A stretch of 3,207 nucleotides of DNA from Escherichia coli (GTDB lineage: Bacteria > Pseudomonadota > Gammaproteobacteria > Enterobacterales > Enterobacteriaceae), in assembly GCF_003334305.1 (NCBI RefSeq), contig NZ_QOWS01000053.1. One strand, written 5' to 3'. Of this stretch, positions 1-3,207 are shown piece by piece (position 1 is the stretch's first letter; every line of letters begins with the position of its first letter). The notes beneath the pieces were generated by a model that was not told where the DNA came from, made no database searches, and worked only from the letters and a program-made list of their open reading frames with translations. The translations under genes and the position numbers were made by a program.

Positions 1-800
1 GGAGCGATCATGCGAAACTCTGGCTGATCTGTGTAAGCGTCCAGTTTGTCTGCAAAGAAGACTATTTCTGGATCATAAAATTCCGGTTGATTCAGCGTCG
101 ACAGAGAGGCTTCTCCCTGCATAATCCGTTGATTAAACGCCAGCCACTGGGCGGTGGGATTAACATGCGAAGGTACTGATTCACGCAACCTTAATATTTC
201 GTCCGGTATATTCTGGCTGAACGTAGCATTTGGTATATATGCATAATTCATGTGGCACATATATTGTAGTGGCATATCTACAGAAGCCAGATTGGTTACG
301 GCCATCTTAATATCGAACAATGTAGAGGATTTGTGAAGGACCACTGTTGGCTGAGCCAGATAATGATGCCCGAACCCCATTACATACTCGTAACGCCCGG
401 TAAGGCGTAACATATCTCCCTCTAATTCCATCCATGCTTCATCCATCGCGGCACAGGCCATTTCACCGTGTAGCAGATGAGTATCTTCCGCAGATGGGCA
501 GCCATTAGCCAGCAAACCTGAATGAAAGGCAAAACAGCCATAGGTCTCTATCACCTCTGTCGCCGGTTTAGGCTGGCGAAACATATTGCACATGGTGAGA
601 CTGTGTCCATCAAATTGCGCATCCCAAATCATCTGCCCCATCCAGGGAAGAATAATTAAATGTCCACGACTGTTTGCAATTTTAAGCCCCTCGACACCAC
701 TGTCATAGCGAAAAGACGTGACAGTAAAATCACTATTTTCCAGCAAGATACGAGGTTTTTCGCCAAAAAGCGCCCGCCACAAATTAATACGCGTACTCAT
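1..800 (-). CDS. deoX: Third operon gene, 5' portion only (266 codons in window, 3' end beyond the left edge); deoX-like protein of unassigned biochemical function, possibly a sugar mutarotase-like enzyme
   Basis: Seen in sequence: translating the minus strand by hand from ATG 800..798 gives an open frame with no stop down to position 3. N-terminus MSTRINLWRALFGEKPRILLENSDFTVTSFRYDSGVEGLKIANSRGHLIILPWMGQMIWDAQFDGH...; the last residues in the window are ...LDAYTDQPEFRMIA. A strong Shine-Dalgarno GAGGAG (813..808) lies 7 nt upstream and overlaps the permease stop codon. This ORF is absent from the supplied ORF track, presumably because it has no stop in the window. The deoX name is from operon position only. 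Confidence 0.7.
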   Translation of the reverse strand, partial: MSTRINLWRALFGEKPRILLENSDFTVTSFRYDSGVEGLKIANSRGHLIILPWMGQMIWDAQFDGHSLTMCNMFRQPKPATEVIETYGCFAFHSGLLANGCPSAEDTHLLHGEMACAAMDEAWMELEGDMLRLTGRYEYVMGFGHHYLAQPTVVLHKSSTLFDIKMAVTNLASVDMPLQYMCHMNYAYIPNATFSQNIPDEILRLRESVPSHVNPTAQWLAFNQRIMQGEASLSTLNQPEFYDPEIVFFADKLDAYTDQPEFRMIA

Positions 801-807
801 AACGGTT

Positions 808-813
808 CTCCTC
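808..813 (-). promoter_or_regulatory. Ribosome-binding site for the third gene (GAGGAG), overlapping the deoP stop codon
   Basis: Seen in sequence: minus-strand 5'-TGAGGAGAACCGTT-ATG-3', where TGA (814..812) is the permease stop. Confidence 0.7.
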
Positions 814-2128
814 AGGACGCTGTGACTTCAGCCAGTGCGGTACGTACTTTGCTTTCACGCCAGAAGTAGACTCCGACATAGACAAAGCAGAGCATAGAAA
901 CCAGGAATGAAAGCTGAAGTGAGTGGAACATATCTGCAATATATCCCTGAATTGCCGGAACCACAGCGGCGCCGACAATAGCCATAACAATGACTGCTCC
1001 TGCCATTTCTGTATGTTCGTTATCAACTGTATCCAGTGTTCCTGCATAGATCGTCGCCCAGCAAGGGCCAAACAAAACACTTACCAGGACGGCGACATAG
1101 ACCGCGCTGAAACTTGGAGCCAGTGCAACATATGCCAGGAACAGCGCCCCTATAACGGAATAGAGAATCAATACTTTTTCCGGATTAAAACGCGTCATAA
1201 GGATGTTGGCTATAAACTTGCCAATAAAGAAGCAGGCAAAGCTATAGACCATGAAGTTTGAAGCATCACGTTCGTTGATATCGCCCAACTCCAGCGCCAG
1301 ACGGATGGTAAATGACCATACTGCGACCTGCATACCCACATAAAGGAATTGAGCCACAATACCACGACGAAAGCGCGAATTTTTAGCCAGATAGCGCAGC
1401 GTATCCATTGCTGACGGGCGTTTATGGTGACTTGTCTGTGCCACTTTACAGGTTGGGAAGCGGGTTAAAAGGAACAACACCATGACCACAACCAGAATCA
1501 TAATCATATACTTATACGGTTCAAGGGTGTTCTCTAACATCAGCACCTTAAAGTTGTGAATTTGCTCGGCGTTCATTCCGGACATCTGCTTCTCAAGGCT
1601 TTCCCCCTCGGAGAAAACCAGATATTTGCCCAATAAAATACCAGACGCAGCACCAATCGGATAAAAGGTCTGGCTGATATTGAGCCGCAATGTGGCATAG
1701 GCTTTTGGACCGATCATTGAACTGTATGTGTTCGCTGCAGTTTCAAGGAAACTCAGGCCAATCGCAATCGCAAAAATAGCTGCAAGGAACATAGTGTAGG
1801 TTGCCATATGCGAGGCAGGGAAAAAAAGTGTACAACCACCAATATACAGCGTCAGGCCAATTAAAATTGCCACCTTATAACTGGTCTTTTTAATCACAAG
1901 GGATGCTGGTATTGCAATTAAAAAATAACCTCCATAAAATGCGCTCTGCACCAATGCTGAAGCAAAGTTACTTAGCGAAAATACACTTTTGAATTGAGTG
2001 ATTAATATGTCATTTAATGCAGCTGCGCATCCCCATAGCGGGAATAAACACGATAACAAAATAAACTGGAACAAGGGAGTCTTATTCAGATATCCATCAG
2101 GCATCTGAATGATGTTTTTATCGTTCAT
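812..2128 (-). CDS. deoP: MFS transporter of the L-fucose permease (FucP) family; putative deoxyribose:H+ permease (438 aa)
   Basis: Seen in sequence: intact 438-aa ORF, stop TGA at 814..812. The protein is hydrophobic throughout with many predicted membrane-spanning segments. Its N-terminal region (LFPLWGCAAALNDILITQFKSVFSLSNFASALVQSAFYGGYF) aligns by eye with my recollection of E. coli FucP (LFFLWAVANNLNDILLPQFQQAFTLTNFQAGLIQSAFYFGYF). Shine-Dalgarno AAGGT (2139..2135) lies 6 nt upstream of the ATG at 2128. It sits 27 bp downstream of the kinase stop on the same strand. Confidence 0.85.
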   Translation of the reverse strand: MNDKNIIQMPDGYLNKTPLFQFILLSCLFPLWGCAAALNDILITQFKSVFSLSNFASALVQSAFYGGYFLIAIPASLVIKKTSYKVAILIGLTLYIGGCTLFFPASHMATYTMFLAAIFAIAIGLSFLETAANTYSSMIGPKAYATLRLNISQTFYPIGAASGILLGKYLVFSEGESLEKQMSGMNAEQIHNFKVLMLENTLEPYKYMIMILVVVMVLFLLTRFPTCKVAQTSHHKRPSAMDTLRYLAKNSRFRRGIVAQFLYVGMQVAVWSFTIRLALELGDINERDASNFMVYSFACFFIGKFIANILMTRFNPEKVLILYSVIGALFLAYVALAPSFSAVYVAVLVSVLFGPCWATIYAGTLDTVDNEHTEMAGAVIVMAIVGAAVVPAIQGYIADMFHSLQLSFLVSMLCFVYVGVYFWRESKVRTALAEVTAS

Positions 2129-2155: not shown

Positions 2156-3076
2156 TTATTCGTTTAAGGTTAAAAATTCATTAAATTGTTCAATACTCGG
2201 ATAAGATGATTGCGTACCTTTCCCTGTGACGCTGAAAGCGGCAAAGAGAGCGGCTTTTTTCAAAGCGGCTTCAACATCACCGCTTTGAACATAATAATGG
2301 GAAAAGCAACCAATAAATGCATCACCAGCGCCACTAGTATCAACAGCATTTACTTTGAATGCAGGAACATGGACTTCCTGATCGCGGGTCATCCATAATG
2401 CGCCTTTTTCGCTCATGGTAACAATAATATTGTTCAGCCCTTTATCAACTAACGAACGCGCAGCCAAACGAATATGATCATAAGTATCAACCGACATACC
2501 TGTTAATATTTCCAGTTCTGTTTCATTCGGGATAAAGAAATCACATTTGCAGGCATAAGACATATCTAACTCACGCAATGCCGGAGCCGGATTTAATAAC
2601 ACTTCAATACCATTTTTCTTACCAAACTCAATCGCGTGGTAAACTGTTTCCAGTTGAACTTCCAGTTGTAAAACGATCAATTTGCATTTTTTCAGATCTT
2701 CTGCAGCTCGATCGATATCTTCCGGGGAAAGAAATTTATTCGCTCCCTTAATTATTAATATACTATTGCTCGAGTTGGCATTAACAAAGATCGGTGCAAC
2801 ACCACTGCTGGTACAGGGGACCTTCTCAACATAAGTGGTATTAATTCCCCATGATTCAAGATTACGAATAGTATTATCCGCAAAAATATCATCACCTACT
2901 TTAGTCAGCATCAGGACTTTTGAATTCAATTTAGCCGCCGCCACCGCTTGATTAGCACCTTTCCCACCACATCCGATTTTGAAGGCAGGTGCTTCCAGAG
3001 TTTCTCCTTCTTTAGGCATCTGATTAGTGTAAGTAATGAGATCCACCATATTGGAACCAATAACTGCAATGTCCAT
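2156..3076 (-). CDS. deoK: Ribokinase/PfkB-family sugar kinase, most likely deoxyribokinase (306 aa from ATG at 3076; the ORF track's 315-aa version starts at 3103)
   Basis: Seen in sequence: intact ORF with stop TAA at 2158..2156. Ribokinase-family motifs are present in the translation: N-terminal MDIAVIGSNMVD, GGKGANQAVAAAKL, NPAP, NETE and the C-terminal DTSGAGDAF signature. The ATG at 3076 has a Shine-Dalgarno AAGAGGT (3089..3083) 7 nt upstream; the ATG at 3103 has none. Substrate (deoxyribose rather than ribose) is inferred only from operon context with a FucP-like permease. Confidence 0.85.
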   Translation of the reverse strand: MDIAVIGSNMVDLITYTNQMPKEGETLEAPAFKIGCGGKGANQAVAAAKLNSKVLMLTKVGDDIFADNTIRNLESWGINTTYVEKVPCTSSGVAPIFVNANSSNSILIIKGANKFLSPEDIDRAAEDLKKCKLIVLQLEVQLETVYHAIEFGKKNGIEVLLNPAPALRELDMSYACKCDFFIPNETELEILTGMSVDTYDHIRLAARSLVDKGLNNIIVTMSEKGALWMTRDQEVHVPAFKVNAVDTSGAGDAFIGCFSHYYVQSGDVEAALKKAALFAAFSVTGKGTQSSYPSIEQFNEFLTLNE

Positions 3077-3089: not shown

Positions 3090-3207
3090 ATAAACTTTCG
3101 CATAACAATGGTATTTAAATAACATTAGCATGTTACTTTTGCATCATTTGTGACTGAGATCGCGATTAGCACATCAACCCGATGTTTATTTAATAGACTT
3201 CCAGTCT
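3090..3207 (-). promoter_or_regulatory. 5' leader and promoter/operator region of the operon (partial; continues beyond the right edge)
   Basis: Seen in sequence: AT-rich non-coding stretch upstream of the first gene. A candidate extended -10 (TGcTAATGT, minus strand 3130..3122) is present, but I found no convincing -35 hexamer. Exact promoter elements cannot be fixed by eye. Confidence 0.4.
3120..3135. repeat. Perfect 6-bp inverted repeat TAACAT-tagc-ATGTTA; candidate repressor operator
   Basis: Seen in sequence: 3120..3125 TAACAT and 3130..3135 ATGTTA are exact reverse complements separated by 4 bp. The repeat overlaps the candidate -10 element. Confidence 0.35.

Follow-up and report, generated by a model that had tools for sequence, protein, structure and literature searches.

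The window, by which we mean the whole 3,207-nt stretch of Escherichia coli DNA that was analyzed, carries three genes on its minus strand, in the order kinase, permease, third gene:

2156..3076, minus strand: deoK, PfkB ribokinase-family kinase (open reading frame; TIGR02152, 369 bits; RefSeq coding sequence)
812..2128, minus strand: deoP, FucP-type MFS permease of 438 aa (open reading frame; TIGR00885, 324.5 bits; labeled fucP in RefSeq)
801..814, minus strand: deoP-deoX junction (permease stop codon TGA at 814..812, Shine-Dalgarno sequence GAGGAG at 813..808, 11-nt spacer)
1..800, minus strand: deoX coding sequence, residues 1–266 of 337 (uninterrupted frame; Pfam DUF4432; 84% identical to Salmonella DeoX)

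The scores of deoK and deoP are above the cut-offs of their respective TIGRFAM models. The RefSeq start of deoK at position 3076, preceded by AGAGG, yields a 306-aa product; an alternative in-frame ATG at position 3103 would yield 315 aa. Translation of positions 800..1 (minus strand) showed that the deoX frame opens with ATG at 800..798 and runs through 266 codons until it exits the window at its left edge; the remaining two minus-strand frames across this region are rich in stop codons. The C-terminal 71 residues lie past the left edge, and the full-length gene, encoding 337 aa, was taken from an E. coli chromosome that matches at 99.8% identity, that of strain ATCC 43896 (L001:5787-6800, minus strand). 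The 266 residues encoded in the window are identical to the product of that gene.

The third gene had been described as tightly coupled to the two preceding ones, and the junctions bear this out. The intergenic gaps are 27 nt (deoK-deoP) and 11 nt (deoP-deoX), the deoX Shine-Dalgarno sequence overlaps the deoP stop codon and stands 7 nt ahead of the ATG, and no minus-strand terminator-like site was seen at the deoP-deoX junction. In the ATCC 43896 chromosome, a gene for a DeoR-family regulator is located upstream, divergent from the kinase gene, and the operon is surrounded by IS remnants and pseudogenes, which makes it a small IS-scarred island. Overall, the window is 99.8% identical to E. 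coli chromosomes, and the operon is carried by 1621 of the 5426 complete E. coli genomes (~30%).

Over 100% of its 337 aa, DeoX shares 84% identity with Salmonella proteins, including an AFDB entry that bears the UniProt name DeoX (84% identity, TM 0.94–0.99). The operon is therefore the deoK-deoP-deoX operon reportedly described for Salmonella in 2003, and the third gene is deoX, the last cistron of this operon, which in E. coli is accessory. The deoQKPX regulon of Salmonella enterica shares with it the order of kinase, permease and third gene, the divergent DeoR-family regulator and the length of 337 aa for DeoX. We see no material difference between the two third genes; the window simply carries the E. 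coli allele. Both the deoQKPX regulon of Salmonella enterica and the deoK operon of E. coli are said to be covered by Christensen et al., 2003 (J Bacteriol 185:6042). The 2003 Salmonella deo paper appears among the listed references of PMC10926698 and PMC2808357.

The original prediction stated that the third gene has no assigned function, which is outdated at the level of annotation: RefSeq and other records already name a mutarotase or epimerase. The RefSeq name is "aldose 1-epimerase family protein"; "deoxyribose mutarotase" is the record name of close relatives in Vibrio harveyi, Salmonella diarizonae, and Photobacterium, and "Deoxyribose specific mutarotase" that of an E. coli relative. 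A passage of the 2012 Azospirillum genome paper mentions "deoxyribose mutarotase (deoM)" beside deoK (PMC3899980), and a passage of a Lactobacillus parabuchneri paper places a deoxyribose mutarotase between deoC and a ribokinase (PMC5313534). On a plasmid of Azospirillum sp. B510, a DeoX homologue with 46.5% identity is encoded immediately upstream of a kinase; judging by the gene order, this is presumably the deoM of PMC3899980, the locus tags differing between the paper and RefSeq. In the part of the 2024 Klebsiella metabolic model paper that deals with this pathway, only deoK and deoP are represented and their gene-reaction rules are empty (PMC10926698). The literature searched contained annotation-level mentions only, and neither a biochemical characterization nor an enzyme assay of DeoX was found in it. 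The gene, the operon, the fold family, and the mutarotase hypothesis for DeoX are already on public record.

Family and fold of DeoX

Pfam DUF4432 (PF14486) matched DeoX in two collinear pieces that cover positions 2–170 and 182–303 of the 304-position model (E = 2.4e-6 and 1.9e-7, respectively). No NCBIfam family matched, even at E <= 10. When 1.84 billion cluster representatives were searched exhaustively, 480 related clusters were found, from which an alignment of 57 mostly full-length sequences, 23–84% identical to DeoX, was drawn. All 57 aligned homologues match DUF4432 (best E 3e-25); none (0/57) matches PF01263 (Aldose_epim) at E <= 0.001. When the partial and the full DeoX sequences were compared with the PDB by phmmer, there was no match even at E <= 10, GalM included. 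This empty single-sequence search fits the 2003 abstract, which is said to have reported DeoX as having no database match.

The profile built from the 57 sequences reached one solved structure, 3TY1 (E 3e-18). This protein, KPN_04629 of Klebsiella pneumoniae, is a structural-genomics "putative aldose 1-epimerase" and the sole solved relative detectable by sequence; it is 15% identical to DeoX. A phmmer search of the PDB with 3TY1 provided no bridge to canonical mutarotases. GalM and other aldose 1-epimerases of PF01263 (L. lactis 1L7J, E. coli GalM, human GALM) have no significant sequence or profile match to DeoX: in hhalign comparisons the probability never exceeded 1.5%, whether a single GalM sequence, a six-sequence canonical alignment rebuilt from PDB alignments, or local mode with or without 3TY1 was used.

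An AlphaFold2 model of DeoX computed on the 57-sequence alignment was of very high confidence, with a pLDDT of 96.8 and a pTM of 0.94, and in a Foldseek search the top 19 PDB matches were all mutarotase-family proteins. The close structural neighbors of known function are all metal-independent mutarotases. As modeled, DeoX is a galactose-mutarotase beta-sandwich, superposable on solved mutarotases, and represents a divergent DUF4432 branch of this fold. The checks proposed together with the original prediction, i.e., recovery of the full-length gene, profile searches, and structure prediction with fold comparison, have thus been run and lead to the mutarotase fold, with no unrelated enzyme family such as a hydrolase or dehydrogenase among the matches listed. 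The RbsD/FucU fold, which had been put forward for comparison as well, was not represented among the Foldseek matches listed. A likeness to galactose-mutarotase-like enzymes had been predicted, and it holds for the fold, as judged by AlphaFold2 and Foldseek, but not for membership in the canonical family: since DeoX belongs to DUF4432 rather than PF01263, and since Leu301/Pro302 appear to occupy the position of the canonical glutamate (see below), DeoX does not count among the canonical aldose 1-epimerases.

The highest 19-residue Kyte-Doolittle mean in DeoX is 0.86, and therefore no membrane segment is expected, in agreement with the earlier description of the protein as soluble-looking. A membrane or secreted role for DeoX was set aside for want of a hydrophobic segment.

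Conserved residues and a putative active site

Only nine columns are invariant in the 57 homologues: P52, W59, G88, H93, G95, H111, N170, H183, and P302. Residues D106, H108, G112, E113 (E or D), Y180, N185, P244, E245, R286, W287, and T304 are shared by 89% of them or more. The segments discussed below are encoded in the window as follows:

522..524, minus strand: H93 codon (His invariant in 57; Arg at the matching position of 3TY1)
432..485, minus strand: DTHLLHGEMACAAMDEAW, residues 106–123
462..473, minus strand: LHGE motif, residues 110–113 (H111 invariant; G112 in 98%; E113 position E or D in 55/57)
342..380, minus strand: MGFGHHYLAQPTV, residues 141–153, one of the two segments originally singled out (histidines not conserved)
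243..257, minus strand: CHMNY, residues 182–186 (H183 invariant; N185 in 98% of 57)
66..68, minus strand: E245 codon (P244-E245 kept in 98%; conserved acid shared with "DE" of 3TY1)

Both peptides quoted in the original prediction, DTHLLHGEMACAAMDEAW and MGFGHHYLAQPTV, are present in the protein, yet calling them His/Glu-rich was an overstatement, DeoX as a whole containing 3.0% His and 6.2% Glu. The two segments also differ in how they fare against the alignment. The LHGE segment, which had been likened to the motif around the catalytic histidine of mutarotases, contains invariant H111, and this residue can be paired, weakly, with GalM His104. In the GHHY segment, 19% of the 57 sequences share H145 and 32% share H146, and because of this poor conservation GHHY was set aside as a catalytic motif.

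The two active-site histidines of GalM are His96 and His170 in the L. lactis enzyme and His104 and His175 in the E. coli enzyme. A single weak local hhalign alignment (probability 1.5%) paired H111 of DeoX with H104 of GalM ("QLHGG") and H183 with H175 ("TNHVYFNL"); the pairing was not reproduced in the other alignment modes. The spacing between H111 and H183 is 72 residues, compared with 71 in E. coli GalM. From these sequence comparisons, H111 probably corresponds to the histidine in the "LHGG" motif of GalM, and H183 probably corresponds to the general-acid histidine of TNHxYFNL. The position of E245 suggests that it may be the counterpart of GalM Asp243.

The general base of GalM, Glu304 in L. 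lactis and Glu309 in E. coli, lies in a hydrophobic-E-[PTC] motif. When DeoX was aligned with 3TY1, "GIEPGT" of the latter fell over "ALPAT" of the former, placing the glutamate opposite Leu301 with high posterior probability; in the weak direct alignment with GalM, P302 was opposite Glu309. Column 301 of the 57 sequences contains Leu in 47, Met in 4, and Glu in 2 (the Leu301 codon itself is outside the window). The canonical catalytic glutamate position thus appears to be occupied by Leu301 in DeoX, the step from 3TY1 to GalM being one of motif resemblance only, and unlike GalM, DeoX would have no counterpart of Glu304. If a general base had simply migrated to E113, the two sequences with Glu301 might have lost this residue. 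No such loss was found. Both keep E113, and therefore there is no covariation in support of a simple relocation of the base.

These features bear on an alternative in which DeoX carries out a different chemistry at its His, Asp, and Glu residues, possibly at a metal-binding site, as an isomerase, an epimerase, or an enzyme dealing with a related compound or a toxic by-product. The absence of the canonical general-base glutamate speaks for it, as do H93, D106, H108, and E113 (the residues of 3TY1 that match H93, H108, and E113 are R, Y, and K) and the fact that the family is still a Pfam DUF; the four conserved histidines, clustered with three conserved acids, might accommodate a metal. Against this stand the close structural neighbors described above, all metal-independent mutarotases, and the completeness of the deoxyribose route, in which transport, DeoK, and DeoC leave no further step to be filled. 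The Agrobacterium operon (see below) likewise seems complete, aldehyde dehydrogenase included. We consider a different chemistry unlikely.

Genomic context and proposed role

Orthologues with 44–59% identity adjoin genes for a deoxyribokinase-like PfkB kinase and for DeoC in six genera of Alpha-, Beta-, and Gammaproteobacteria and Lactobacillales:

Vibrio harveyi: regulator-DeoC, divergent from kinase-MFS-DeoX
Pasteurella testudinis: regulator-DeoC, divergent from kinase-MFS-DeoX
Burkholderia pyrrocinia: kinase-MFS-DeoX, followed by deoR and deoC
Azospirillum sp. B510: deoC, ABC transporter, DeoX, kinase
Agrobacterium tumefaciens: DeoR-family regulator, ABC transporter, DeoX, kinase, deoC, aldehyde dehydrogenase
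Lentilactobacillus buchneri plasmid: deoC-DeoX-kinase, beside rbsK-rbsD-fucP

The transporter is of either the MFS or the ABC type while DeoX stays, and therefore DeoX is tied to the cytoplasmic handling of the free sugar and not to one permease; a transporter-specific accessory role was set aside for this reason. The same observation weakens the view that DeoX is a non-catalytic sugar binder, for example a permease partner or a factor that presents the inducer to DeoQ. A specific permease partner would hardly be retained when the transporter is switched, and the invariant histidines and asparagine together with the conserved glutamate, maintained down to 23% identity, point to catalysis. We regard a purely binding role as very unlikely.

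More distant relatives occur in other settings. A member with 39% identity is found with a fucose isomerase, an FGGY kinase, and an ABC transporter; in fucose clusters, a FucU-type mutarotase is expected among such genes. Distant members (30–39% identity) are also found with mannitol dehydrogenase and altronate dehydratase, and with an SDR and PEP mutase. One relative with 43% identity is on a short contig with uninformative neighbors. Overall, the DUF4432/DeoX family looks like a group of accessory sugar enzymes of varying specificity.

A further alternative, that DeoX is an anomerase (mutarotase) of 2-deoxyribose-5-phosphate serving DeoC, has precedents in YeaD and yeast Ymr099c, which are anomerases for hexose 6-phosphates. 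It sits poorly with the gene neighborhoods: the distant family members adjoin transporters and kinases of other free sugars, and in Alphaproteobacteria the DeoX gene lies between the ABC permease genes and the kinase gene. Moreover, 2-deoxyribose-5-phosphate can exist only in furanose and open-chain forms, and its anomerization would not be an obvious bottleneck. An anomerase acting on the phosphorylated sugar is, in our judgment, improbable.

We favor a role one step earlier. What the data show is a fold, a pattern of conserved residues, and a linkage to the operon; from these we infer a substrate and a reaction for DeoX and roles for its individual residues. DeoX would be a cytoplasmic ring-opening catalyst that supplies the furanose form of deoxyribose to DeoK; we assign this reading, which is drawn from sequence and context, a probability of about 0.6. 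In water, 2-deoxy-D-ribose is mostly a pyranose, and in the pyranose form O5, the atom that DeoK phosphorylates, serves as the ring oxygen. DeoK is therefore restricted to furanose or open-chain forms as its substrates. By acid/base opening of the ring of free 2-deoxy-D-ribose, DeoX would bring about a fast equilibration of pyranose and furanose anomers. DeoX would presumably act on a 2-deoxypentose and usefully yield a furanose, as opposed to GalM, whose product is the other pyranose anomer.

Christensen et al. are said to have found in 2003 that deoX is required only for optimal growth on, or utilization of, deoxyribose. A partial requirement of this kind fits an enzyme that accelerates a spontaneous reaction. 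Mutarotation of deoxyribose does occur spontaneously, a point against the proposed role as regards its physiological gain. E. coli K-12, which is without the operon, can evolve to grow on deoxyribose with no changes other than mutations in rbsK and rbsR (PMC6452873). The deoK operon as a whole is said in reviews to raise competitiveness in the host (PMC7545054).

In the proposed reaction, H183 would serve as general acid toward the ring oxygen, with H111 holding the sugar in position. Another conserved acid, either E113 of the HGE motif or E245, would be the general base on O1-H, in place of the glutamate whose position is apparently occupied by Leu301. A more detailed version of this mechanism, in which the DeoX clade is a distinct branch of the mutarotase fold that has lost the general-base glutamate, uses E113 or E245 as the base with the help of the clade-specific residues H93, D106, and H108, and functions as a pentose pyranase and not as an anomerase, is tentative, and we are inclined to doubt it as a whole. 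The angle is mildly new: a DeoX/DUF4432 clade seemingly without the canonical general base would, if confirmed, be a mechanistic variant of the mutarotase fold.

If DeoX were shown to be a mutarotase or pyranase, the one step still unassigned in a small, well-known pathway would be closed, Pfam DUF4432 would gain its first experimentally defined member, and metabolic models could assign deoX. As databases already carry the prediction and no more than a mild phenotype is expected, the value of such a result would be that of confirmation, not discovery. Were the pyranase with a relocated base to prove true, it would be the first DUF4432 enzyme to be characterized, and the problem solved by RbsD and FucU would have a third, structurally independent solution.

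With these two proteins, D-ribose pyranase (RbsD) and L-fucose mutarotase (FucU), DeoX would share the conversion of the imported ring form of a sugar into the form used by the kinase or isomerase: DeoX would feed DeoK in the way that RbsD feeds RbsK and FucU feeds the fucose pathway. Fold and family are unrelated, and the analogy is one of function only. It is displayed side by side on the Lentilactobacillus buchneri plasmid, where the rbsK-rbsD pair next to deoX and its kinase gene provides a visual analogue of the comparison with RbsD.

Naming of the kinase and permease

The operon's kinase and permease genes carry automatic names from the RefSeq/PGAP annotation; coordinates are also given on L001, the E. 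coli ATCC 43896 chromosome region 99.8% identical to the window.

Window 2156-3076 (L001 8156-9076), minus strand: kinase, DeoK; RefSeq/PGAP name 'rbsK ribokinase'
Window 812-2128 (L001 6812-8128), minus strand: permease, DeoP; RefSeq/PGAP name 'fucP L-fucose:H+ symporter'

Both proteins score above the cut-off of a broad TIGRFAM equivalog (kinase, 369 over 299.65 bits; permease, 324.5 over 280.4 bits). The E. coli-type equivalogs NF008353 and NF007524 are not reached by the kinase (251.9, below 341) and the permease (285.1, below 427), respectively. From operon context, the kinase is DeoK and the permease is DeoP, and the automatic names rbsK and fucP are therefore over-specific. An equivalent naming problem has been pointed out for metabolic models (PMC10926698).

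An in-frame upstream ATG at window position 3103 would lengthen the kinase ORF to 315 aa. The RefSeq start at 3076, which gives 306 aa (N terminus MDIAVIG...), is immediately preceded by a Shine-Dalgarno-like AGAGG; of the two, this 306-aa start looks right.

A decayed island around the operon

Of 5426 complete E. coli genomes, only 1621 have the operon; in E. coli ATCC 43896 it lies in a small decayed island (L001 3700-13800). Near the operon, within these bounds, lie:

IS200/IS605 tnpA, frameshifted
DUF3927 fragment
acetolactate-synthase small-subunit pseudogene
ISEc52, frameshifted
uxaA-family pseudogene

DeoX relatives: active site, gene neighborhoods, and possible fusions

The codon for DeoX L301 lies outside the window, at about L001 5898-5900. 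When 57 DeoX homologues were aligned (A1), Glu was found in this column, which appears to correspond to the catalytic glutamate of canonical mutarotases, in two proteins, P0137 and P0166, both of which also retain E113, the acid of the LHGE motif. These proteins may be intermediates between DeoX-like active sites and those resembling the Klebsiella pneumoniae structure 3TY1.

On the mobilizable Lentilactobacillus buchneri plasmid pLBUC01 (L012 210-6939), the pentose modules rbsK-rbsD-fucP and deoC-deoX-kinase adjoin in parallel, flanked by IS elements. The neighbors of P0132, a DUF4432 protein (39% identical) on a metagenomic contig (L010 1-8095), are an FGGY kinase, a ThuA-like protein, an L-fucose isomerase, and an ABC sugar transporter. 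Clusters of this kind would be expected to include a mutarotase of the FucU type, and the presence of P0132 in one suggests that the DUF4432 family provides mutarotase-like functions for further sugars as well.

The truffle Tuber aestivum has a 1266-aa protein (A0A292Q6T5; AFDB, rank 12), annotated there as 'deoxyribose-phosphate aldolase,' in which one domain resembles DeoX (47% identity, TMq 0.96). Two readings fit: a genuine Rosetta-stone fusion of DeoX with DeoC, or a eukaryotic gene model that merges a bacterial operon into a single gene. In Salmonella P0009 (524 aa) and AFDB A0A379VJI4 (559 aa), both annotated as 'transcriptional regulator UhpA,' response-regulator and LuxR-type HTH domains (PF00072, PF00196) are joined to a full DUF4432/DeoX domain; these fusions are probably gene-call or frameshift artefacts linking adjacent genes.
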